64,000 bases of DNA from an uncultured delta proteobacterium (GTDB lineage: Bacteria; Myxococcota; Myxococcia; Myxococcales; Anaeromyxobacteraceae): contig CAWHDZ010000025.1 in the NCBI GenBank assembly GCA_963828255.1, forward strand, positions 64,001-128,000, in the 5' to 3' direction. A program made the position numbers and the translations under genes. Shown here one piece after another: positions 6,322 through 49,478 of the stretch; positions within the stretch are counted from its first letter, which is position 1; each line of letters opens with the position of its first letter. The notes under the pieces are model-generated. The model had not been told where the DNA came from. It saw only the letters and a list, made by a program, of their open reading frames with translations, and searched no databases.

Positions 6322-7844
6322 CCTGCCTCCCTTGCCTCCGTTGACGCCGGACGATCGAGGGCGCGGTACTGAACGGCCTCCAGCAGGTGGCGCGACTCCA
6401 CGCGCGCCGCGCCCTCGAGGTCGGCGATGGTTCGCGCCACCCTGAGGATTCGATCGTGTGCCCGGGCCGAGAGAACGAGCCGCCGGGCGGCCTGGGTGAG
6501 GACCTCCCGCGCCGGCGGTTCGAGCCCGCAGGCCCGCCGCAGCGCCCCGCCCCGCAGCCGGGCGTTCTGGAAGCCGCGCTCCGCCTGGCGGCCCCGGGCC
6601 GCGAAGACCCGCACCGCCACCTCGGCCGTTCCCTCCCCCTGCCCGGCCCGCGAGAGCTCCTCGCAGGGGACGGCGGGGATCTCCACGTGCATGTCGATGC
6701 GGTCCATGATGGGTCCGGAGACGCGGCGCCGGTAGCGGAGCAGCTGGTCGTCGCCGCACAGGCAGGCCCGGCGCGGGTCGCCGAGGAAGCCGCACGGGCA
6801 GGGGTTCATGGCCGCCACCAGCTGGAAGTCGGCCGGGTAGTGGACCGTGCGTCCGGACCGCGAGAGCACGACGTCCCCCTCCTCGAGCGGCTGGCGCAGG
6901 GACTCGAGTACGTGGCGCCGGAACTCGGGCAGCTCGTCGAGGAAGAGGACACCGCGGTGGGCCAGCGAAACCTCCCCCGGGCGTGGCGTCGCCGAACCGC
7001 CCACCAGCCCGGCGTCGGAGATGGAGTGGTGCGGCGCGCGGAAGGGGCGCTCGGTGAGGAGGCCGCGGTCGCGCAGCAGCCCGGCGACGCTGTGGACGGT
7101 GGTGGCCTCCAGCGCCTCGTCGCGACCGAGCGGGGGCAGGAGCCCGGGCAGCCTCCGCGCCAGCATGGTCTTGCCGCTCCCGGGAGGCCCGAAGAGGAGC
7201 AGGTTGTGGTCGCCGGCGGCGGCGATCTCCAGCGCCCGCTTGGCGGCGGCCTGGCCGGCCACGTCCCGGAGATCGAGCGCCCCGCCCGGCAGCTCGAGCT
7301 GCCGCTGCGCGCCGGGGAGGGCGCCGAGCTCCCGCTTCCCCTCCGCCCAGGCCACGAGCTCCCCCAGGTGGCGCACCGGAAGGACGGCGAGCCCCTCCAC
7401 CGCCGCGGCCTCGAGCGCGTTCCCCGCGGGCGTGAGGAAGCCCCGCGCCCGGTCGCGCAGCGCCGCCACCGCCATGGGCAGCACCCCTCGCACCGGCCGC
7501 ACCTCCCCGGAGAGGGAGAGCTCGCCGCAGAGGTGGAGCCCCGCGAGCGGGCGCGGGGGGACGAGGCCGCAGGCGGCGAGAAGCGCCACCGCGATGGGCA
7601 GGTCGAACCCGGTTCCCTCCTTGCGGAGGTCGGCCGGGGCCAGGTTCACGGTGATGCGCTTCGAGGGGAGCCGGAAACCCAGGTTGCGGACCGCCGCGCC
7701 CACCCGGACGAGCGACTCCTGCACGGCGCTACCGGCGAGCCCGACCAGCTGGGTGCGCGGGAATCCGGAGGTGGCGTCCACCTCGACGTCCACCGGGAGG
7801 GCGGTGACGCCGAGGAGGGCCGAGGAACGGACGCGGACGAACAT
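6318..7844 (-). CDS. comM: YifB/ComM family Mg-chelatase-like AAA ATPase
   Basis: [46 protein letters not shown]. Confidence 0.93.
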
Positions 7845-38912: not shown

Positions 38913-38941
38913 AATATACGCTCCACGGCATATCGGTTCAA
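38913..38941 (-). promoter_or_regulatory. Sigma-70 promoter of the toxin-antitoxin operon
   Basis: TTGAAC-N17-TATATT, about 40 bp upstream of the toxin GTG. Confidence 0.6.
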
Positions 38942-39054
38942 TGTCGGCAGCGATCCACGCACGGGGTCCCCCGTGGCATTCCCCGTGCCTCCCAAGGTCC
39001 GCGAGGCACCCCATCGGCCCCTTGCTTCGGCGATTCCGCGGATTAGCTTTCCCG

Positions 39055-40809
39055 GTGCCCTTGGCCTCCCCTTCCCCCTCCCGCCTCTCCTCCGCCCGCC
39101 GCCTCCTCCCCCTCCTCGAGATGGAGTGGAAGGCGCTCGCCGGCGCCACGGTCCTGCTGCTGCTGGGCTCGGCCGCCGCGCTCGCCTATCCGCAGGGCAT
39201 CCGCATCATCGTGGACGGGGCGCTCGAGAGCCGCGACATGGGGCGCATCCGCCAGGCAGCCCTGGTCATGGGGGCGCTGGCGGTGGTGCAGGGGCTCGCC
39301 GTGGCCGGCCGGGCCTACCTGTTCGCCCTCGCCGGTGAACGGGGAGTGAAGCGGGTGCGCGAGCAGCTCTTCGACTCGCTGGTGGTCCAGGAGGTGGGCT
39401 TCTTCGACGGGCAGCGCACCGGCGACCTCACCTCCCGCCTGGCCTCCGACACGGCATCGCTGCAGGGGCTGCTCTCCTCCCAGCTCTCCATGGCGCTGCG
39501 GAACGCGGTGCAGGTGGTGGGCGGGATGGTTCTCCTCTTCATCACCTCCGCGAAGCTCACCAGCGTGATGCTGCTCGTGGTCCCGGCGGTGGCGTTCGGC
39601 GCGGTCTTCTACGGACGTAAAGTCAGGGCGCTCTCCAAGGGCTACCAGGACGCGCTGGCCGACGCCGGGCACGCGGCGGAGGAGTCGCTCTCGGCCATCC
39701 GCACGGTGCGCTCCTTCGCGGCCGAACCCGCCGAGATGTCCCGCTACGGCGCGGCCATCGAGGCGAGCTTCCGGCTGGCGCGCACGCGCGTGCGGGCGGC
39801 GTCGATCTTCATGGGGGCGGCGTCCACGGGGGTCTACCTGGCCATCGCCGTCGTGCTCGGCTACGGCGGGTCGCTGGTGGCGGGGGAGCTCAGCGCCGGC
39901 GCGCTCACCGCCTTCCTGGTCTACACGCTGCTCATCGCCATGGGGCTCGGCACGCTGGCCGACATCTGGGCCGAGGCCATGAAGGGGCTGGGGGCCGCAG
40001 AGCGGGTCTTCGAGCTCTCCTCGCGCACGCCTGCGATGCCGGTTTCGGGCGGGCGGCGGCTCGAGCGCGTGAAGGGGCGCGTGTCGTACGAGAAGGTGCG
40101 GTTCCGCTACCCCACCCGGCCCGACGTGGAGGTGCTGCAGGGCATCGACCTCGCCGTGGAGCCCGGGCAGGTGGTGGCGCTGGTGGGTCCGTCGGGGGGC
40201 GGCAAGTCCACCATGGGTGCATTGCTCTCGCGCCTCTACGACCCCACCGAGGGGCGCGTGGCGCTCGACGGCGTGGACCTCCGCGACCTCGACCCGGCCT
40301 GGCTGCGGCGGCTCGTGGGGGTGGTCTCGCAGGAGCCGGTGCTCTTCTCGACGACCATCGGCGACAACGTGCGGTACGGGCGCCCCGAGGCGAGCGACGA
40401 GGAGGTCCGCGAGGCCCTGCGGGCGGCCAGCGCGCTGGGCTTCGTGGAGGGGTTCCCGGATGGGCTCTCCACCAAGGTGGGGGAGCGGGGGCAGCAGCTC
40501 TCCGGAGGGCAGAAGCAGCGCATCGCCATCGCGCGGGCGCTGCTCAAGGACCCGCGCATCCTGCTGCTCGACGAGGCCACCAGCGCGCTCGACGCCGAGA
40601 GCGAGGCGCTGGTGCAGGACGCGCTCACGAAGCTCATGCGCGGCCGGACCTCGGTGGTCATCGCCCACCGGCTCTCGACGGTGATCGGGGCCGACCGGGT
40701 GGTGGTGGTGGACGGGGGCGAGGTGGCCGAGTCGGGCACGCACGCCGAGCTCCTGGCGCGCGGCGGGGTCTACGCCCGGCTGGTGGAGAAGCAGGTGCTG
40801 CGGGGGTAG
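39055..40809 (+). CDS. ABC exporter, fused permease/ATPase (MsbA/ABCB type); start uncertain
   Basis: Six-TM domain, GPSGGGKST, LSGGQKQR, LLLDEATSALD, IAHRLST. Confidence 0.92.
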   Translation: MPLASPSPSRLSSARRLLPLLEMEWKALAGATVLLLLGSAAALAYPQGIRIIVDGALESRDMGRIRQAALVMGALAVVQGLAVAGRAYLFALAGERGVKRVREQLFDSLVVQEVGFFDGQRTGDLTSRLASDTASLQGLLSSQLSMALRNAVQVVGGMVLLFITSAKLTSVMLLVVPAVAFGAVFYGRKVRALSKGYQDALADAGHAAEESLSAIRTVRSFAAEPAEMSRYGAAIEASFRLARTRVRAASIFMGAASTGVYLAIAVVLGYGGSLVAGELSAGALTAFLVYTLLIAMGLGTLADIWAEAMKGLGAAERVFELSSRTPAMPVSGGRRLERVKGRVSYEKVRFRYPTRPDVEVLQGIDLAVEPGQVVALVGPSGGGKSTMGALLSRLYDPTEGRVALDGVDLRDLDPAWLRRLVGVVSQEPVLFSTTIGDNVRYGRPEASDEEVREALRAASALGFVEGFPDGLSTKVGERGQQLSGGQKQRIAIARALLKDPRILLLDEATSALDAESEALVQDALTKLMRGRTSVVIAHRLSTVIGADRVVVVDGGEVAESGTHAELLARGGVYARLVEKQVLRG

Positions 40810-40820
40810 GCGTGGCGGCG

Positions 40821-41051
40821 CTAGGTCTTCGGGCGCCGCTTCAGGCGGGCGCCGACGGCGGCGAGCGAGATGGTGCGGCGGGGCGCGAGGGCCTCGGCCT
40901 GCTGGATGTTGCGGGCCTCCTGGGAGAGCGCCTGGCGGAGCGCGTCTCCGATGACCTCGGACATGGTGCAGTCGGTGGCCTTGGCCCTGAGGCGGAGCGC
41001 GCGGTGCAGGCGGGGGTCGAGGTACGCGGTGATGCGTTTCCGTGAGGGCAT
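40821..41051 (-). CDS. CopG/ribbon-helix-helix protein
   Basis: KRITAYLDPRLHRALRLRAK...MSEVIGDALRQAL. Confidence 0.75.
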   Translation of the reverse strand: MPSRKRITAYLDPRLHRALRLRAKATDCTMSEVIGDALRQALSQEARNIQQAEALAPRRTISLAAVGARLKRRPKT

Positions 41052-41159
41052 GGAGAGGTAGCGTGGCGGTTTCGGACGGGGGCGTCAAGGTGCCGGGGAG
41101 TCGGCGAGGGGGAGAGGCCGCCCTCGGACGCGTGCGCGAGCGACAGGACCGCGAGCGCC

Positions 41160-42113
41160 TCAGGCGGCCCCCAGCAGGCGATCGACCGTCTGCGCCGGCC
41201 GCTCCAGCAGGTCGAGCCCGGACTCCACCCGGCAGGCACGCGCAACGTCCGCGATCCGCCGCAGGACGTCCAGGTGATCCGCTCCGCCCGGGAGACCGTC
41301 CACGACGAGGAGGGTGCTCGACTCGATGAGCGCCCCCAGGGCGTCGGCGGCCGGGATGGGTTCGATCACCGTGGCGGCTCCCCCGGAAACGTGGGGCAGG
41401 AGGAGCAGCGCAGGCGTCGCCATCGAGGAGCGCTCGCGACCGGGCCACGCCTGGCGTGGGTCGAGCCGGCGCTTCTCACCGGAGGGGAGCAGGCCGGAGA
41501 GCAGCGCCCCAATGCGCGGGAAGGCCGTGGCCGTCCTCGGTGCGACGTGGAACGGGCGCGGCAGCGCCAGGACGGCCTCGTCGCCGCAGCGGGCCGAAAG
41601 GAACACCGCATCGTCTCCCAGGTACGCGCAACCGGCCTCGAGAAGCGCCAGCGTGAGCGTGCTCTTCCCGGCCCCCGCGGGTCCGGCCACCAGGATCCCC
41701 CGGCCGTCGGGCGCCACGAGCGCGCCGGCGTGGAGGTGGAAGAGTCCGTGCCAGCGGAGGGCCAGGACGAGCGCGATGAGGAGGAGCACGTGCGCGAAGA
41801 AGTGGCCGTCGCGCAGCGACTGGTCAGCGACGTCCAGCTCGACGAGCCCGCCGGCGGCGGCGATGCGCGCGCGGGAGTGGCCGTCCCAGACCGTCAGTTC
41901 CTCGCCCTCGCCGTGGCAGTCGACGATGCCGTGGTAGAAGCGGCGCGGCCCGGCCGGGCGCGGAAGCGACGGGCTCGCCCGCAGCACGACACGCAGGTCG
42001 GGAGTCCGGGCCGAATCGTCGATCGGAAGGGCGCCCAGCAACTCGGCCGCCGCGGCGACCAGGCGTGCGTCGCCCTCCACTGTGAGTACCATCCGGTGGA
42101 AGCACAGGCGCAT
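41160..42113 (-). CDS. HprK-related kinase (RiPP-associated type)
   Basis: LHAGAL, Walker A GPAGAGKST, LGDD. Confidence 0.85.
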   Translation of the reverse strand: MRLCFHRMVLTVEGDARLVAAAAELLGALPIDDSARTPDLRVVLRASPSLPRPAGPRRFYHGIVDCHGEGEELTVWDGHSRARIAAAGGLVELDVADQSLRDGHFFAHVLLLIALVLALRWHGLFHLHAGALVAPDGRGILVAGPAGAGKSTLTLALLEAGCAYLGDDAVFLSARCGDEAVLALPRPFHVAPRTATAFPRIGALLSGLLPSGEKRRLDPRQAWPGRERSSMATPALLLLPHVSGGAATVIEPIPAADALGALIESSTLLVVDGLPGGADHLDVLRRIADVARACRVESGLDLLERPAQTVDRLLGAA

Positions 42114-42117
42114 GCGG

Positions 42118-43221
42118 TCAGCGGCCGGTCAGGAGCGACCAGGCGCCCCGCACGGGTCGCCAGAGGTAGAGAAGGGGAAGGACCGGCGAGGACCGGGGAA
42201 CCCGGTAGCGGGTCGCCATGTACTCCCGGGCCGGGAAGAGGATGCGGGCGAAGCCGGCCGGGGATCGACCCTGCCTCGCGAAGACCTCCTCCCAGTGCCG
42301 GGCCCGGACTCGAACCGCGTGGCGCCAGGCGGGGAGGCCGCGGGCCGCCCCTTTCTGCAGCAGGAGGCGCGCGGCCTCGAGCGCCCTCCGGCTCCCGTGG
42401 GGAGCCATCCGCGCCTCGACCTCACCCCAGGTCGCGGCGCCGGAGCCCACGGTCACGGCAAGGTCGCCGAGGAGCCGCGGCACGAACTTCTCCCGCCCCT
42501 CGTGGTGGTCGAAGACGTGCAGGCAAGCGCCGGCTGCGAGGTCAACCGCCGACGGGATTCGCAGGGTGCGCCCCTGCCAGGTCACGGTCCGCGACCGGGT
42601 CAGCAATCCCTGGAAGTCGGACCCGCCCCGCGCCTCGCCGGGCTGCGCGTTGTGCACCTCCAGTGCGACGCCGTGCGGCGTGTACACCAGCGGCGAGTGC
42701 ACCTTCCCGGGCTCGGCGTGCTCGGCGCGGGCTCCGTCGTAGCGGAGCTGCGGGTCCCGCTGCCGCGCGCCCAGACCCCGGACGGCGTCGTCGGCGCGCT
42801 CGGAATCCCGCTCCCGCACCAGCAGGTCCACGTCCCCGACGTGCCGCGCCCCGATGTCCGGATAGTGGACCAGGAGCAAGCCCGGGCCCTTCAGCACGAT
42901 CGATTCGATGCCCGCCTCGGCGAGCCCGGACTGCACCCTTGCCGCCTCGGACAGCAGGAGCGCGTTTCGCGCCGTCGCGTCGGCATGGGCGTCCTGGAAG
43001 GCCGAGCGGGCCGGTTCCGGGATCTCCTCCTCCAGACCGCGCAGCGACACCGCCGACCACACCGACTCGGCCACCGATCCGGCCCCTGCCAGGGAGAGCG
43101 CGCGATCCCAGCTCCGCACGCCGCGCATCGCCTCCCGCAGGCCGGGCCGGTCCGATCCCAGCGCGAGTAGCGCCTCGCGGACGAAGCGTCGCTCGGCCTC
43201 GCCCAGCGCCGCGAGGTTCAC
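42118..43221 (-). CDS. Nucleotidyltransferase (NTP_transf_5-like)
   Basis: ARNALL, IVLKG...YPDIGARHVGDVDLLV, LEVH; GTG start overlaps the upstream TGA. Confidence 0.85.
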   Translation of the reverse strand: MNLAALGEAERRFVREALLALGSDRPGLREAMRGVRSWDRALSLAGAGSVAESVWSAVSLRGLEEEIPEPARSAFQDAHADATARNALLLSEAARVQSGLAEAGIESIVLKGPGLLLVHYPDIGARHVGDVDLLVRERDSERADDAVRGLGARQRDPQLRYDGARAEHAEPGKVHSPLVYTPHGVALEVHNAQPGEARGGSDFQGLLTRSRTVTWQGRTLRIPSAVDLAAGACLHVFDHHEGREKFVPRLLGDLAVTVGSGAATWGEVEARMAPHGSRRALEAARLLLQKGAARGLPAWRHAVRVRARHWEEVFARQGRSPAGFARILFPAREYMATRYRVPRSSPVLPLLYLWRPVRGAWSLLTGR

Positions 43222-43949
43222 CCGGCAGCCTCCGCGACGAGCCCCTCGGCCGCCAGCTCGGCGAGCAGCGCCTCGACGTCCTGCTCGACCACGTCCAGCG
43301 AGGGCGCCTCGAAGTCGCGAGCGATGCGTTCGGCCAGGGCGCGCGCCGACGGCGCGTCCCCGGCGGCGAGCAGCTTCCACACCGCCACGCCGGTTGCGTT
43401 CAGCGTGAAGTAGAACTTGCTGCGGAGGTCGAGCAGCAGCCCCGTCCCGTCCTTCATCTCGGTCAGGATCACGTCGCGGTTCGCCTGGGTGGGCGCCATG
43501 GTCGCCTCCGTCTTCGATTCGCCGCTCCCTCGCGGCGGATAGGCAAGAGCCTCGGCGAATCGCGGCCGGGGATCCGCCGGCTCTCCCACCGGCTCGCCAT
43601 TCCGTTCTAGCCAGGCGTGGGCCACCACCTCGCCCTCCTCGACCCGGACGCCGATCACCAGCCGGACGGGCTCGCCCGCGGCCCGCAGCGAGGCGAAGCC
43701 GGCCAGCGAGCGGAAGAGGCAGGTGGCCGGGCGGCGACGGAGCGCCGCCACGATCCTCCCGGCGTCGCCTCCGGCGCCTCTCGACGGGCCGTCGTCCAGC
43801 ACATCCAGAAGGTCCAGGACGTGGTGCCGCCGCAGGAGGTGCGGCATGAGGGCGACCAGCGCGGCCCGGCGAATCCCGGCCCCGGGTGCGCCAGGAGACG
43901 GGGGCGCGAGGATCCGGAGGGCGACGCGCGTGGCGGCGGAGGGCGCCAC
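43218..43949 (-). CDS. Lasso-type B2 leader peptidase fused to C-terminal PqqD/RRE domain
   Basis: TCLFRSL...VRLVIGV...AHAWLE (transglutaminase-like Cys/His), then LLDLRSKFYFTLNATGVAVWKLL...DVEALLAELAAEGLV (PqqD fold). Confidence 0.88.
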   Translation of the reverse strand: MAPSAATRVALRILAPPSPGAPGAGIRRAALVALMPHLLRRHHVLDLLDVLDDGPSRGAGGDAGRIVAALRRRPATCLFRSLAGFASLRAAGEPVRLVIGVRVEEGEVVAHAWLERNGEPVGEPADPRPRFAEALAYPPRGSGESKTEATMAPTQANRDVILTEMKDGTGLLLDLRSKFYFTLNATGVAVWKLLAAGDAPSARALAERIARDFEAPSLDVVEQDVEALLAELAAEGLVAEAAG

Positions 43950-43952
43950 CTG

Positions 43953-44975
43953 CTACCCCACCACGTTCAGCGCGGCGCGTCCGGCCCGAGGACCGGCGCT
44001 CCCGCCGTCCACCCAGTGCGGCTTCCCCAGGCGGGCCAGGCATCGGTTGCACGGGAAGTCGTCCCAGCCAGGTTTCGCCCCCGGCGCAGCCGCAATGGAG
44101 TCGAGCCGTTCCCGCTCCAGCCGGTGGACGAGGTCGAGGAGGCGGCGGTGCCCGTCGGCGAGGCTCTCCACGGCCAGGTCGGCGACCACGTCCTCGCGGC
44201 TGCCCGGGACGCCGGAGTGGTTGCAGCACAGGTTGAGCATCCCCTGCGCAGTGACGTGGAGCGTCTCGCTGCGGAACGGCTCGCAGAGGTGGAACCGCGA
44301 GCCGCGGCGGAATCCCTCGGCGAGGAGGATCGGGATGTGCAGCAGGGTCGAGAGCCGGTCCACCCGGTCGCGGACGCGGTCGAGCTCAGCCGGGGACAGG
44401 TACAGGTCGCGGTCGTCGTAGGCGCCGGCGGCATGCGTCATCGCGAAGCTCGCCTGCGTCGCCCCCAGCTCGGCGGCATGGAGAGCGGCCTGCTCGATCT
44501 CCCCCTGATTCAGCGCGTTCACCGTCATCTGGAGGGCGAAGGGAAGCCCCCGGGCGCTGCACGCGGCGATGGCCGACATCGCCTCCCGGTGGCTGCCCTC
44601 GCCCCGGATGGCGTCGTGGGTCGCCGCGGTGGCTCCGTCGACGGAGAAGTCGATGATCGAGAGCGCGTCACGCCGCACCGGCGCCTCCTCGAGGAGGGCG
44701 AGGAGTCGATCGAAGCCACGGCCGCTCGTGACCAGGTGCCAGGTGAACCCGCGCCGGACCACCGCGTCGAGCGCGCCCGCCAGGTGGGGCCAGAGGAGGG
44801 GGTCACCGCCCGTGAACCCGGCGTGCCGGATCCCGTGCAGCTCCGCCGCCTCGCCGATCACCTTCTCGACCACCGCCAGCGAGAGGTCGGCCGGCCGGCT
44901 GCCCGGGTCGCGCAGGCAGTGGCGGCAGGCCAGGCCGCAGCGCTCGGTGACGTGGAATACGATCCAGCGGGACAT
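43953..44975 (-). CDS. Radical SAM enzyme with SPASM/twitch-like C-terminus
   Basis: CGLACRHC, FTGGDP, SVDG...HDAIRGEGS; C-terminal C...GMLNLCC...CNRC. Confidence 0.88.
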   Translation of the reverse strand: MSRWIVFHVTERCGLACRHCLRDPGSRPADLSLAVVEKVIGEAAELHGIRHAGFTGGDPLLWPHLAGALDAVVRRGFTWHLVTSGRGFDRLLALLEEAPVRRDALSIIDFSVDGATAATHDAIRGEGSHREAMSAIAACSARGLPFALQMTVNALNQGEIEQAALHAAELGATQASFAMTHAAGAYDDRDLYLSPAELDRVRDRVDRLSTLLHIPILLAEGFRRGSRFHLCEPFRSETLHVTAQGMLNLCCNHSGVPGSREDVVADLAVESLADGHRRLLDLVHRLERERLDSIAAAPGAKPGWDDFPCNRCLARLGKPHWVDGGSAGPRAGRAALNVVG

Positions 44976-44978
44976 GGC

Positions 44979-47129
44979 TCAGGGGAAGGGCGCGAAGGCG
45001 GCGGCGCCGTCCGTGGCCGGGCCGGCGGTGAGCTGGCGGACCGCCGCGCCGGTGGCGACGTCGACGAGCCACAGGTCCGCGTTTCCCGACCGATAGGAGG
45101 TGACGACCATCCGGGCGCCGGTGGGGTCGAAGGCGGGCTCCCCGTCCACCTGGCTGGTGACGACCCGGATCACGCCCGTGGCGAGGGCCTGGATCACCAC
45201 CTCGGAGACGGCCGCGCCGGAGGCCCCACGGGTGAAGGCGATGCCGGCGCCGTCGGGGGTTGCCGCAGGGCGCCCACGGATCCCGGACGCGGTGGTGACC
45301 CGGACCGCCGCGCCGCCCGCAGCCGTGACCTTCCAGACGTCGTAGCTGCCCGTGGCGTCTTTCGAGGAGAAGTAGACCTGCGATCCGTCCGGGGACCAGG
45401 CCGGTCCTGCGTTGAAGGTCGTGCCGTGCGTGAGGTTCACGGGCGTACCTCCGGCGGCGGGGACCACGTAGATGTCGGAGACGTTGGTGACGCCCGGTGC
45501 CTGGCCCTCGAAGGCGACCAGCAGGCCGTCGGGAGAGAACGCCGGCGACGTCGCGGTGAGGTCGCCCACGTCGAGGAGCGAGTCGGACCCCGTCGCGAAG
45601 TCGTGGAGGTAGATCTGCATGCGTCCGCTGGACGCATTCGCGTGGGCCAGCGTCCTGGCCGGTGACCAGGTGGCGAAGAGGTCGTCGGTCGTGCCGTCCG
45701 TCAGGCGGGCGAGGCAGGAGCCGTCCTCCCGCACCACGTGGAGGTCGAAGGCGCCGGTCCCCCTGGACGAGAAGGCGAGCCAGCGGGCCCCGGGGGTCGT
45801 GATGGCGCAGGGAGGGAGGACCATGACGTCGAGCTCGGCCATGAGCGTGGCTCCGCCATGGCTTGCGGAGAGGGTCGCCGTCACGTCGGTGGCGACGGCC
45901 GTCGTCGTCACCGCGAAGGTCGCGCTGCTGGCGCCGGCGGCCACGGTCACGCTCGCGGGCACGATGGCCGACGCATCACTGGACGTCAGCGTCACCGCCA
46001 CCCTGGCCGCTGGCGCCGGGCTGGCCAGCGTCACGGTCCCCGTTGCGCCCGCTCCCCCCTGCACCTTCGCAGGCGACACGCTCAGCGACGAGAGCGCCGG
46101 AACCGGGGGCGGCAGCAGGGTGATCGTCAGGAGCCCCGAGACGCTGTCCCCCACGACGTCCGCCGTGATGTACGCCGTCTCGTCGACGGTCACGCTCGCA
46201 GTGGTGACCGCGAAGGTCGCGGTGGTGGCGCCGGCGGCCACGGTGGCGCTCGCCGGCACCGTGGCCGACGCGTTGCTCGACGACAGGGTTAGCACCGCGC
46301 CGCCCGGGGGCGCGGCGTCGGTGAGGGTCACGGTGGCGGTCGCGCTCCCCCCGCCCTGCACGATCTCCGGCGAGAGGGTCAGCGACTCCAGCTCGGGCGG
46401 CGGCGGAGCCACCGTGATGGCGAGGGTCGCCGTCCGGCTCGCGCCGCCGTAGGTCCCGGTCAGGGTCGCGGCCGTGTCCGACGCGACGGCCGCCGTCGTG
46501 ACCGCGAAGGTCGCGCTGATGGCGCCGGCGGCCACGGTCGCGCTCGCCGGCACCGTGGCCGACGCGCTGCTCGACGACAGCGCCACCACCGCCCCCCCGG
46601 CGGGTGCCGGCAGGGTGAGCGTCACCGTTCCGGTCAATCCCGTTCCACCCTCCACGCTCGCCGGAGACACGCCCAGGGACGAGAGCGCCGGTACCGGTGG
46701 AGGCTGCGCCGTGATCGCGAGGGACGCCGTCCGGGCCACGCCGCCGCAGGTTCCGGTGAGGGTCGCGGCCGTGTCCGACGCGACGGCGATCGTCGTGACC
46801 ACGAAGGTCGCGCTGGAGGCCCCGGCGGCCACGGTCGCGCTCGCCGGCACCGTGGCCGACGCGCTGCTCGACGACAGCGCCACCACCGCTCCCCCGGCAG
46901 GTGCCGGCCCGGTGAGCGTCACCGTTCCGGTCGCGCCCGTTCCGCCCGACACGCTCGCCGGAGACAGCGTCATCGTGGACAGCGACACGGCCGGCGGATC
47001 CGCGACTCCGCCACCGCACCCCAGCCCGGCCAGGGCGAGAAGCAAGCTCGCGGCCCGCCAGAAGGGTCGAGCGGAACGGCGCGCTTCGGTAGATCGGAAA
47101 CGCGAACGGAACGGGGCTCGCATGCTCAC
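44979..47129 (-). CDS. Lipoprotein with four Ig-like repeats and a TolB/PD40 beta-propeller
   Basis: Lipobox-like LAGLGC; four roughly 99-aa Thr/Ser/Ala/Val repeats; SPAFSPDG, PAWSPDG, PAFDPTG blades. Confidence 0.8.
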   Translation of the reverse strand: MSMRAPFRSRFRSTEARRSARPFWRAASLLLALAGLGCGGGVADPPAVSLSTMTLSPASVSGGTGATGTVTLTGPAPAGGAVVALSSSSASATVPASATVAAGASSATFVVTTIAVASDTAATLTGTCGGVARTASLAITAQPPPVPALSSLGVSPASVEGGTGLTGTVTLTLPAPAGGAVVALSSSSASATVPASATVAAGAISATFAVTTAAVASDTAATLTGTYGGASRTATLAITVAPPPPELESLTLSPEIVQGGGSATATVTLTDAAPPGGAVLTLSSSNASATVPASATVAAGATTATFAVTTASVTVDETAYITADVVGDSVSGLLTITLLPPPVPALSSLSVSPAKVQGGAGATGTVTLASPAPAARVAVTLTSSDASAIVPASVTVAAGASSATFAVTTTAVATDVTATLSASHGGATLMAELDVMVLPPCAITTPGARWLAFSSRGTGAFDLHVVREDGSCLARLTDGTTDDLFATWSPARTLAHANASSGRMQIYLHDFATGSDSLLDVGDLTATSPAFSPDGLLVAFEGQAPGVTNVSDIYVVPAAGGTPVNLTHGTTFNAGPAWSPDGSQVYFSSKDATGSYDVWKVTAAGGAAVRVTTASGIRGRPAATPDGAGIAFTRGASGAAVSEVVIQALATGVIRVVTSQVDGEPAFDPTGARMVVTSYRSGNADLWLVDVATGAAVRQLTAGPATDGAAAFAPFP
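45830..46982 (-). repeat. Four tandem ~297-bp intragenic repeats (Ig-like modules)
   Basis: Units begin LSTMTLSP, LSSLGVSP, LESLTLSP and LSSLSVSP; core VPASATVAAGAxSATFxVTT; first two units are 297 bp apart. Confidence 0.85.
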
Positions 47130-47314
47130 TAGCCGGGGCCAGGCCCGACCATCCCACCCGGTTCCCCGCTTCCACCGGTGAATTGCAGCGTGACCCTCGA
47201 CACCGAGCGCTTCTTCACGATGCGCGGGGGCTGGTAGGGCGGGCGCTCGACCCGGGCATCCTTACCGTCCGCCTGTCCCTGCGCCCTCGACTTCCTCGCG
47301 TTCTTGCCGTCCAT
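47129..47314 (-). CDS. Putative RiPP precursor peptide (lasso-type leader)
   Basis: 61 aa; GAAGGA RBS; YQPPRIVKKRSVSRVTL leader end, predicted core QFTGGSGEPGGMVGPGPG; lies in an operon with an RRE and a B2 peptidase. Confidence 0.78.
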   Translation of the reverse strand: MDGKNARKSRAQGQADGKDARVERPPYQPPRIVKKRSVSRVTLQFTGGSGEPGGMVGPGPG

Positions 47315-47330
47315 GAAGATCCTTCATCCC

Positions 47331-48806
47331 CTACGGGATCACGCGGGTGAGGTCGCTCCGGCCGGCCGTTGCGCTGGCCTTCGGGGCCCACAACGCACCG
47401 GCGCCGGAAGCGATCCCGTAAGGGCTGCTGGATGACACGAGCGGACCGAGACAGGTCTGGGTTCCGTTGCCCGTCGAGCCGAGCCAGACGCGGCACAGAC
47501 CGTTCGTGCTGTGCATGGTCCAGAGGTTGGCGTCGGGCCCGTAGGCGAGGGCGGAGAAGGTCGCCGAGGTACCGGCAGAGTATGGCGCCGTCGAGGTGGT
47601 TCCGGTGATCTTGCAGATCCGCCCGATGCCGCCGCTCGTGGTCACCACCCAAACGTCGCCGCTGGGTCCGGCCACCATGGGGCGGTTGGTTCCGAGGGTG
47701 CCGCAGGCACTGCTGAGCGTGAAGGAGCCCAGGCTCCTCTTTGCCACGCAATCGATTCGGCGGAGCCGGTCGGTCCGGTTCGTTCCCGTGTAGAGGTAGC
47801 AGCTCGTACCCTGCCTGACGGCCACGATCGGGGAGACCCCGCTTCCGCTGCCGCCATTCGTGATCCTTCCCTGGGTCCTGGCGACCGGGTCGTACCAGAC
47901 CACCCCGCTCGCGCTCGGCAGCGCGAACCAGACCAGGCCGTTCGGGTCCACCGCGACCCCTTCCGGATTCCCTCCCCCCGTGATGGCGATCTCCGACCCG
48001 ACGAGCGCGCCCGATGCATCCAGGCGCGCGATCCTGTTCACCGATCCGAGCGCCACCCAGATCTGGCTGCCGTCGGCGTTCGCGCCCACGCCAGTGGGAG
48101 CGGCGGAGAGGACCGCGGACTGGGTGACCGTGCCCGCGGCGTCGACGATGAGGACTTTCCTGCCGGCGGTGTCGATGAAGAGTGCGCTCGTTCCGGTTCC
48201 GGCCATCCGGTAGCTCTGAGAGGCCACCGACTGCATCCTGGAGGTCCACGGATCGACCCGGAAGGCGACGATCTGCCCCTTGAACGTGGAGCGCACCCCG
48301 CTCGTGAAGGTGAAGGCCCACGTCCTGTCCGTCGGGACGCCCGGCGTCAGGTCGCCGTACGACCAGAGCCCGCCGTTCGCCGCGGTGACGCCGGGGATCG
48401 CCGGGTCGCTGTTGCAGGCCGCAGCGGTCGACGGGGTGAGCGAGGTCATCTCGGCGTAGACCTTGGCGAGCACCGTCGGCGAGGAGAAGTTGGAGGTGAC
48501 CCTCACCGTCCCGCCGGAGGTGGTGGTCGCGCCACAACCGACCTGGGCGTTCCACCAGAGCGTGTTGCCCGGTGCGTTCGCCACCGTCACGCCGGGCGTG
48601 CCGCTGGGGATGACCAGCGCGCTCATCCCCAGGGCCTGACCGAGCGCCGTCGTCTCGGCCTGGATGGTGAAGGTCCCGGCGACCGCGTCCACCTCGCCGG
48701 AGAACGTGGCCAGGACCAGCGGCCGCGCATCCTCGGGTGTCCCTTGCGTGTCCTCGGCACCGCAGGCCGCGACCGCGAGCGCGACGACGATGAGCAGCCT
48801 CTTCAT
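47331..48806 (-). CDS. Lipoprotein with C-terminal Vgb/NHL-like beta-propeller
   Basis: GGAGG RBS; MKRLLIVVALAVAAC lipobox; blades PEGVAVDPNGLVWF, AGPSGDVWV, YGPDANLW, PYGIASGAGALW. Confidence 0.78.
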   Translation of the reverse strand: MKRLLIVVALAVAACGAEDTQGTPEDARPLVLATFSGEVDAVAGTFTIQAETTALGQALGMSALVIPSGTPGVTVANAPGNTLWWNAQVGCGATTTSGGTVRVTSNFSSPTVLAKVYAEMTSLTPSTAAACNSDPAIPGVTAANGGLWSYGDLTPGVPTDRTWAFTFTSGVRSTFKGQIVAFRVDPWTSRMQSVASQSYRMAGTGTSALFIDTAGRKVLIVDAAGTVTQSAVLSAAPTGVGANADGSQIWVALGSVNRIARLDASGALVGSEIAITGGGNPEGVAVDPNGLVWFALPSASGVVWYDPVARTQGRITNGGSGSGVSPIVAVRQGTSCYLYTGTNRTDRLRRIDCVAKRSLGSFTLSSACGTLGTNRPMVAGPSGDVWVVTTSGGIGRICKITGTTSTAPYSAGTSATFSALAYGPDANLWTMHSTNGLCRVWLGSTGNGTQTCLGPLVSSSSPYGIASGAGALWAPKASATAGRSDLTRVIP

Positions 48807-48822
48807 TCCTCCCCCTCTGATG

Positions 48823-48873
48823 ATCATGAACCGCATGGGTTCATCTCTCGAATACTGGCTGATATCATGAACC
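48823..48873. promoter_or_regulatory. Candidate operator: ATGAACC-N5-GGTTCAT palindrome plus ATCATGAACC direct repeat
   Basis: Palindrome at 48826-48844; 10-mer at 48823 and 48864; just upstream of the RiPP operon. Confidence 0.45.
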
Positions 48874-49034
48874 CGGCTCTTCGCGAGTCCACTTCCTGGC
48901 GTTCGCCTGGCCCTGCCAGGCGCACCTACATGTCGGTGCGCCCACTGGACTGTCAGACCCCCGATCCAGGATGCAGGCTGCCGGTGTCGGCTCCCCGACC
49001 GTCGCCGGGCATTCCCTTCAGGAGGTCCTTCAAC

Positions 49035-49478
49035 ATGGCAGTGAAGGTGATGGTTGCCCCCGCGATCGCATCCGCCTTGGACGTGCCGTTGGCGCGCAAG
49101 GCCCGCGATCCGCTCGCTCCACCGAAGGTTCGCCGCCGCAAGTCCGCGGTCTACGACGCCGACGGCCACGAGGTCCTCATCACCCTGATGTGCCTCAAGT
49201 GCCATCAGATGAGGCCGCTGTCACAGTTCGGCCTGCGGCGAATGGCCGACGGCTCGATCCGCAACCAGCCCTGGTGCCGGGGGTGCCGGTCCGGTGCCGG
49301 CGCCGAGAAGCCCCGCCGCCGCGAGCAGGACGATGCCGGCCCGGACACGGACGCCGGGCCGACTCCCGAATCGGTCGTCGGAGCCGCCCCCACCGCCACC
49401 CTTCCCCAGCGCCCGGTCGACGCCGGCCAGATGGCCACGCAGATCGCCGCAGCCCTCGCTGGAGGCTGGCGGAAATAG
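49035..49478 (+). CDS. Hypothetical zinc-finger protein
   Basis: AGGAGG RBS; CLKC...WCRGC; basic stretch KVRRRK. Confidence 0.7.
   Translation: MAVKVMVAPAIASALDVPLARKARDPLAPPKVRRRKSAVYDADGHEVLITLMCLKCHQMRPLSQFGLRRMADGSIRNQPWCRGCRSGAGAEKPRRREQDDAGPDTDAGPTPESVVGAAPTATLPQRPVDAGQMATQIAAALAGGWRK

Follow-up and report, generated by a model that had tools for sequence, protein, structure and literature searches.

A conserved lasso-type precursor peptide family in Anaeromyxobacteraceae, with no cyclase found nearby and paired with predicted lipoproteins

Described systems and the precursor family

Linear polyphosphorylated peptides (LPPs) are products of the lppA-K-B-S-D-N clusters of Bacillota (PMC13381572). 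Their kinase LppK phosphorylates Ser3 of the core, as does BsfK of the lasso-peptide cluster Bsf of Bradymonas sediminis (PMC13381572; PMC10368454). Paeninodin and pseudomycoidin clusters likewise combine an HPr-kinase homologue with a nucleotidyltransferase, which in pseudomycoidin adds a hexose to the phosphate (PMC8498205). According to the LPP report, it is unknown what paeninodins and LPPs do biologically, and the nucleotidyltransferase substrate is unresolved (PMC13381572). Here we describe a 61-residue precursor peptide gene and its operon in a 64,000-nucleotide stretch (the window) of contig CAWHDZ010000025.1 from an uncultured member of the Anaeromyxobacteraceae. The strongest signal at this locus, absent from the initial annotation of the window, is the pairing of the precursor with flanking lipoprotein genes.

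The locus resembles LPP clusters in its Tyr-x-x-Pro leader, its RiPP (peptide made by the ribosome and modified post-translationally) recognition element (RRE), its HprK-like kinase and nucleoside triphosphate (NTP) transferase without a cyclase, the hydroxyl near the core start and, in some precursor-bearing genomes, links to polysaccharide loci (PMC13381572). It differs in using a B2 leader peptidase and Thr-2 rather than an archaeal-type signal peptidase and Thr-1 (one genome, G005, is perhaps an exception), in occurring in Myxococcota rather than Bacillota, and in having a short conserved core of 13–16 residues, an optional radical S-adenosylmethionine (SAM) enzyme and paired lipoproteins (PMC13381572). 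No dedicated exporter is evident either; the MsbA-like exporter that adjoins the source operon is present in cluster-less relatives as well. The words lipoprotein, propeller and radical are absent from the main text of the LPP report (PMC13381572). The Bsf cluster shares the Tyr-17/Pro-14/Leu-12 leader, B1, B2, a nucleotidyltransferase and a kinase (RRE-aided, acting on Ser3), and is bordered by an FG-GAP repeat gene; unlike the present locus it has a cyclase, an ABC transporter and Ile-2, whereas here there is no cyclase, Thr occupies -2 and B2 and RRE are fused (PMC10368454). Paeninodin and pseudomycoidin differ in forming a lasso and in being modified on a C-terminal Ser (PMC8498205). The family would work like the LPPs, without their signal peptidase and leader end and without the cyclase of the lasso peptides. 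No description of this precursor family was found in the open-access literature, a scope outside which lie supplements, including the LPP supplementary data that could list such clusters.

The precursor and its parts are as follows (all on the minus strand).
47129..47314, minus: precursor peptide gene, 61 residues (open reading frame and homologue conservation)
47186..47236, minus: leader segment Tyr-17 to Leu-1, predicted recognition site for RRE and B2 (conservation in 120 homologues)
47132..47185, minus: predicted 18-residue core, Gln1 being an additional residue relative to the family (alignment; inferred cleavage site)
47179-47177, minus: codon of Thr3, the predicted phospho-acceptor (alignment with Ser/Thr2 of the family)

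The initial annotation had placed the gene here with lasso-leader spacing, and all positions check out: if the cut follows Leu43 (Leu-1), Tyr27, Pro30, Ile32 and Thr42 fall at -17, -14, -12 and -2. We infer this cleavage site, and all core numbering depends on it. The frame starts with ATG, and a purine-rich site can be read upstream. Exact leader spacing is found in three of the 22,723 open-reading-frame tails of the source genome, of which only the precursor shares a contig with the genome's single B2/RRE gene, so that the match is beyond chance.

With a profile built from eight precursors, at least 199 of 301 candidates were retrieved as homologues at E ≤ 1. Residue counts out of 120 refer to the 120 listed homologues of the 199. 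The profile is narrow and these 120 are its top-scoring matches, so a second, more diverse sample of 44 genomic precursor copies from 25 genomes was gathered. Among the 120, Tyr-17 and Pro-14 are invariant, Thr-2 is present in 119 and Leu-1 in 118, and the leader codons are under purifying selection (mean synonymous pS 0.48 versus non-synonymous pN 0.12; 17 codons, 32 distinct DNA copies). The earlier view of a genuine precursor with a lasso-type leader is supported by this conservation of the frame and the leader motif. The precursor occurs in 24 of the 92 genomes of the family (counting G112, added from the lipoprotein side, and leaving out the weak G101), and its profile matches 21 of 401 genomes of the phylum; within genera, the presence of precursor and partner domain (see below) is patchy. 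Weak matches in G101 and G270 were discarded, and a search of phage and plasmid records gave no match. A homologous precursor is encoded by a cultured species, Anaeromyxobacter oryzae (WP_248354694.1).

The source core begins with Gln, carries Glu at position 8, has eight Gly and a single Phe, at position 2, and ends without Ser. Among the homologues, with a median core length of 15, the start is Phe-Ser/Thr-Gly in 113/120; Phe1 is found in 113 of the 120 and in 35 of the 44 genomic copies. A Ser or Thr occupies position 2 in 116/120, and the remaining four, which are offset but can be aligned, have it at position 3; in the genomic copies it lies somewhere in positions 1–3 in all 44 and exactly at position 2 in 38. 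Thr3 of the source aligns with this residue and is the best candidate for the kinase target, as the initial annotation had proposed; its second candidate, Ser6, is not conserved. The residue is Thr rather than Ser in 91 of the 120, whereas LppK did not accept an S3T substrate (PMC13381572). Gln1 is seen in the source copy only (1/120), with Glu in its place in two close relatives, and the extra residue is therefore a trait of a small lineage. By general peptide chemistry, such a Gln at the N-terminus would be likely to form pyroglutamate.

The acid is most often Asp7 (96/120), and Glu at position 8 is found in 3/120. The Gln1 and Glu8 stressed earlier are thus true of the source copy but are not traits of the family. 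Asp or Glu at positions 7–9 is present in 104 of the 120 as against 24 of the 44 genomic copies, and 11/120 cores have no acid anywhere. Absence of Cys likewise describes the source but not the whole family: Cys comes as exactly one pair, spanning position 4 and the tail, in 11/120 listed homologues, and as one pair in 6/44 genomic copies. The other 109 cores, the source core among them, are free of Cys and lack the Cys donors of sactipeptides and ranthipeptides, in line with the exclusion of that chemistry in the initial annotation. Its remark that the C-terminal Ser used by paeninodin kinases is lacking also holds, such a Ser being found in 4/120. Paired Cys residues in P0009, P0021, L069, L074, L086, L088 and L091 (L numbers denote loci, G numbers genomes) suggest a disulfide loop from the N-terminal part to the tail, and Phe-Ser-Phe core starts are seen at L091:3109 and L089:662-742.

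Pairing with lipoprotein genes

The precursor lies between two genes for predicted lipoproteins.
47331..48806, minus: predicted lipoprotein, 491 residues, with an N-terminal beta-sandwich partner domain and a Vgb-lyase-like propeller (PF24684, 53.6 bits, cut-off 50)
~48710-48231, minus: unannotated N-terminal partner domain of the 491-residue lipoprotein (alignment; model pLDDT 83)
44979..47129, minus: predicted lipoprotein with repeated Ala/Thr/Ser-rich modules and a TolB-like PD40 propeller (PF07676; TIGR02800 below cut-off)

The 491-residue protein carries what we take to be a lipobox. The GTG start of the TolB-like gene overlaps the precursor stop, with an alternative ATG at 47123. This protein is found in 25 of the 92 genomes, namely all 24 with a precursor and one weak extra. 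As a lasso isopeptidase it was set aside, the model match covering the propeller part only. DNA repeats, about 300 bases each and nearly identical, make up its N-terminal part; most orthologues (about 300 residues) lack them.

The partner domain (∼165 residues, two invariant Cys) is shared by the lipoproteins beside precursors and is predicted confidently to be a beta-sandwich (predicted local distance difference test, pLDDT, 83). No Pfam family corresponds to it, a Foldseek search gave no match at E ≤ 0.001 and Atlas matches were all below 0.9. The best VIA-align match is a viral envelope beta-sandwich (Z 9.2, 110 residues, root-mean-square deviation 3.1), followed by adaptin appendages at Z of about 7. 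The modelled domain is thus a common beta-sandwich, from which the structural matches allow no functional inference. The cargo that it carries varies: Vgb-like, FG-GAP, RCC1, BNR and DUF5122 propellers, Big_5, DUF1554 and a metallophosphatase.

The domain occurs in 24 of the 92 genomes. Of these, 22 were already known to have a precursor, in G112 the precursor was then found beside the domain, and in G110 the contig edge is reached. Domain and precursor are shared in 23 genomes; G084 shows a weak local domain match only. A partner-domain gene lies within 400 nt of the precursor (measured between open frames) in 36 of the 41 copies found by the precursor search, and in 39 of 44 after three copies found from the lipoprotein side are added. 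In 24 genomes there are 43 precursors, 53 partner domains and 27 kinases; the first two track each other more closely than the enzymes do, with a Spearman correlation between their copy numbers of 0.72 overall and 0.995 within the genus. For sixteen precursor copies, the satellites, no enzyme gene was detected up to 8 kb away, and several of these copies lie on short contigs. Their leaders and cores are intact and the cores nearly identical as the lipoprotein cargo changes. Gene order also varies, the precursor standing before or after the lipoprotein gene. In the phylum the domain is present in 27/401 genomes, and in a distant family (f25; G214 and G222) the domain gene is directly followed by a precursor that is divergent, yet equal in leader spacing and beginning with Phe-Ser-Gly. 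AraC-family regulator genes, at L064:6268-7308, L066:11666-12691, L070:3515-4564 and 6623-7633, L040:3660-4724 and L065:6944-7897, stand directly before several satellite cassettes.

Modification enzymes and the cyclase question

The minus-strand operon runs from the lipoprotein gene 48806-47331 through the precursor and the lipoprotein gene 47129-44979 to those for the radical SAM enzyme, B2-RRE, nucleotidyltransferase and kinase. Downstream of the precursor the genes are separated by a few bases or overlap at stop and start, and each is single-copy in the source genome. The enzymes and an adjacent exporter are listed below.
43953..44975, minus: radical SAM enzyme, 340 residues, Cys13/17/20 and conserved C-terminal Cys231/250/251/309/312; optional member
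43218..43949, minus: B2 leader peptidase fused to a C-terminal RRE, Cys77 and His111 conserved (NF033537, 49.2 bits, cut-off 33; PF13471, PF05402)
42118..43221, minus: nucleotidyltransferase NTP_transf_5, Asp130/Asp132 conserved (PF14907)
41160..42113, minus: HPr-kinase-like kinase with conserved Walker A and Asp167/Asp168 (TIGR04352/PF07475, both below cut-off)
38941..40809, plus: convergent MsbA-like ABC exporter, probably a neighbour rather than a dedicated member (orthologue distribution)

Catalytic residues of all four operon enzymes are kept across homologues. The kinase is found in 24 of the 92 genomes, 22 of them with a precursor (the others are G073 and G110); in G114, which has a precursor, it is a contig-end fragment. 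The exporter was set aside as a probable neighbour, since orthologues 84–90% identical occur in cluster-less G001, G004 and G009 and it lies on other contigs or at a distance in five of five cluster-bearing genomes tested. No promoter- or terminator-like site was found in 40700-49300. Genes of the system are scattered through a polysaccharide operon in G214, and polysaccharide loci are linked in G085, G010 and G028 as well. In G005 a signal-peptidase-like domain (partial TIGR02228 match, 38.5 bits, under the cut-off of 51.85) is fused to the nucleotidyltransferase, with two RREs (L013:3991-6089, the same stretch as L039), and no B2 was found with the source B2 as query. Judged from these domains, G005 may be a bridge to LPPs, in which a protease of the LPP type serves the present precursors.

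The radical SAM enzyme is present in 15 of the 92 genomes, all 15 with a precursor. It was not found in the other nine of the 24 precursor genomes, including the 98–99% complete G084, G105, G022 and G112, nor in G214. It shares a Cys triad and a C-terminal Cys set with the SPASM/twitch maturases PqqE, SkfB, MftC and ScmF, but the scores of these best matches fall far short of the cut-offs (63 bits at most), a sugar-nucleoside decarboxylase scores almost equally, and the enzyme forms a clade of its own with about 100 representatives at E ≤ 1e-30. Its closest named relatives are uncultured Anaeromyxobacter records; Pedobacter loci L017/L018 were set aside as spurious. The enzyme probably acts on the peptide, because in G028 and G085 its gene directly follows the precursor with the other enzymes elsewhere. 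Two further arrangements were seen. At L012:4129-11437, two radical SAM paralogues flank one precursor with an acid-free core, adjoined by an acyltransferase and glycosyltransferases. At L015:223-2159, another cyclase-less cassette (RRE, a 30%-identical radical SAM enzyme, Tyr-x-x-Pro/Thr precursor, Big_5 repeat protein and kinase) lies near a family-type cluster in which no precursor was found.

Of the features of lasso-peptide clusters, the leader (Tyr-17, Pro-14, Leu or Ile-12, Thr-2) and an RRE and B2 with catalytic Cys and His are present, and no macrolactam cyclase was found in the cluster. The cyclase family PF00733 has no match beside precursors in 22 genomes (in G022 a short match to the P-loop region, 19 kb off, is the nearest) or in 111 open reading frames neighbouring precursors, and the cyclase model NF033535 has none anywhere in G010, G003 and G012, which hold seven, six and three precursors. 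The sole asparagine-synthase family member of the source genome, glutamine-hydrolysing and of housekeeping type, was rejected as a cyclase, being ∼105 kb away and scoring 215 bits against the cyclase model's cut-off of 525.

Proposed function and alternatives

With moderate confidence we propose a linear, RRE-guided peptide that is phosphorylated near its core start, decorated, cut by B2 and works with the neighbouring predicted surface lipoproteins. The observed basis is a conserved open reading frame in an operon whose catalytic motifs are intact, with no cyclase found nearby and an optional radical SAM enzyme, and the pairing of the gene with two lipoprotein families. The RRE would bind the leader and present the precursor to the HPr-type kinase, which, by analogy with LppK and BsfK, would (poly)phosphorylate the conserved hydroxyl near the core start, Thr3 in the source. 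On the precedent of PsmN, the nucleotidyltransferase would then probably put a sugar or nucleotide on the phosphate. B2 would cut after Leu-1 and release a linear peptide; the radical SAM enzyme would make a second modification in roughly 60% of precursor genomes. The genomic pairing points to the cell surface, where the peptide might serve the partner-domain lipoproteins as ligand, tag, subunit or covalent anchor and the TolB-like propeller would be its likely binder or chaperone. More specifically, and only tentatively, the phospho-(glyco)peptide may be a building part of the surface, docked on or fixed to the partner-domain beta-sandwich of the cargo-swapping lipoproteins as a tag for display or a link to surface polysaccharide, the TolB-like propeller acting as carrier.

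Several points weigh against this proposal. LppN showed no detectable activity in a heterologous test (PMC13381572). The partner-domain profile was seeded from precursor neighbours, which makes adjacency partly a matter of construction, and the genomes are kin, so that pairing statistics are overstated; copy numbers are minimum values. Near some nine of the partner-domain copies in precursor genomes no precursor was detected, several of these lying at contig ends, and G334, G390 and G134 have the domain and no precursor match. Conversely, four of the 44 copies (G028, G011, G093 and G085) lack an adjacent lipoprotein, as does the G177 copy, whose precursor and partner-domain gene are on different contigs. 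No dedicated exporter is evident that would bring the peptide to the lipoproteins. Finally, a lasso would explain both the common Asp7 and the ring-to-tail-like Cys pairs.

A true lasso closed on Asp7 or Glu8, with its cyclase elsewhere or too divergent to detect, would also suit the canonical leader, the B2/RRE and the Gly-rich, ring-sized N-terminus. We nevertheless give it only a slight chance, since 16/120 and 20/44 cores have no acid at positions 7–9, some have none at all, the only family member in the source genome is an asparagine synthase and three multi-copy genomes have no match; the neighbourhoods scanned around precursor copies yielded no cyclase, and the initial annotation had similarly judged a stable lasso unlikely. 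It had also named Phe2 as a candidate target of the radical SAM enzyme. If that enzyme defined the class by cross-linking or altering the Phe at the core start, with kinase and nucleotidyltransferase as tailoring enzymes, the prevalence of Phe1, the confinement of the enzyme to precursor genomes and its place after the precursor in G028 and G085 would follow. In aromatic cross-linked (triceptide-like) peptides, conservation of the aromatic residue goes together with an obligatory radical SAM enzyme. Here the enzyme is optional, which does not establish Phe as its target: by-eye reading of the 44 copies finds Phe1 kept in several genomes without a detected orthologue and, in G086, a core devoid of aromatic residues beside the enzyme. 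The assignment of Phe2 is thus weak, and a class defined by this chemistry appears improbable.

Two other explanations concern the lipoproteins. The modified peptide could be a diffusible signal or antagonist with the neighbouring lipoproteins as receptors or immunity proteins. Vgb-lyase-like and TolB-like propellers have folds that bind peptides, and the patchy presence within genera and the AraC-type regulators before several satellite cassettes would fit. Yet cores stay near-identical as the cargo switches between FG-GAP, RCC1, BNR, Big_5, DUF1554 and metallophosphatase, which speaks against matched immunity because core and receptor would diverge together; this, and the lack of an evident dedicated exporter, makes such a role unlikely. 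Alternatively, the short frame might merely hitch-hike, duplicated with a shared promoter region and functionally unconnected to the lipoproteins, as the partner domains without a nearby precursor and the shared history of kin genomes could suggest. Since order varies, a distant family shows the pairing again and leaders and cores remain intact in satellites, we regard this as very improbable.

Function could be tested directly in this family: its core is short and conserved, its candidate partners are named proteins whose genes are duplicated along with that of the peptide, and a homologous precursor has a cultured carrier. Further gains are a radical SAM clade that is uncharacterised and has a defined candidate substrate, and a new, predicted secreted domain. 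If the reading as a surface building part is true, it would constitute a peptide-based surface-anchoring system and the first function for RiPPs with HPr-type kinase and nucleotidyltransferase.

Around the operon, three smaller features were seen. A 147-residue frame at window:49035-49478 (plus), divergent from the operon, has two Cys-x-x-Cys pairs and no NCBIfam match at 1e-6; frames of similar size adjoin citrate synthase in relatives. Between kinase and exporter, a 76-residue frame at window:40821-41051 (minus) is conserved in relatives and resembles a ribbon-helix-helix regulator. At window:38212-38870 (minus), a RelE-like and a helix-turn-helix protein form a toxin–antitoxin-like pair, as judged from their translation alone.
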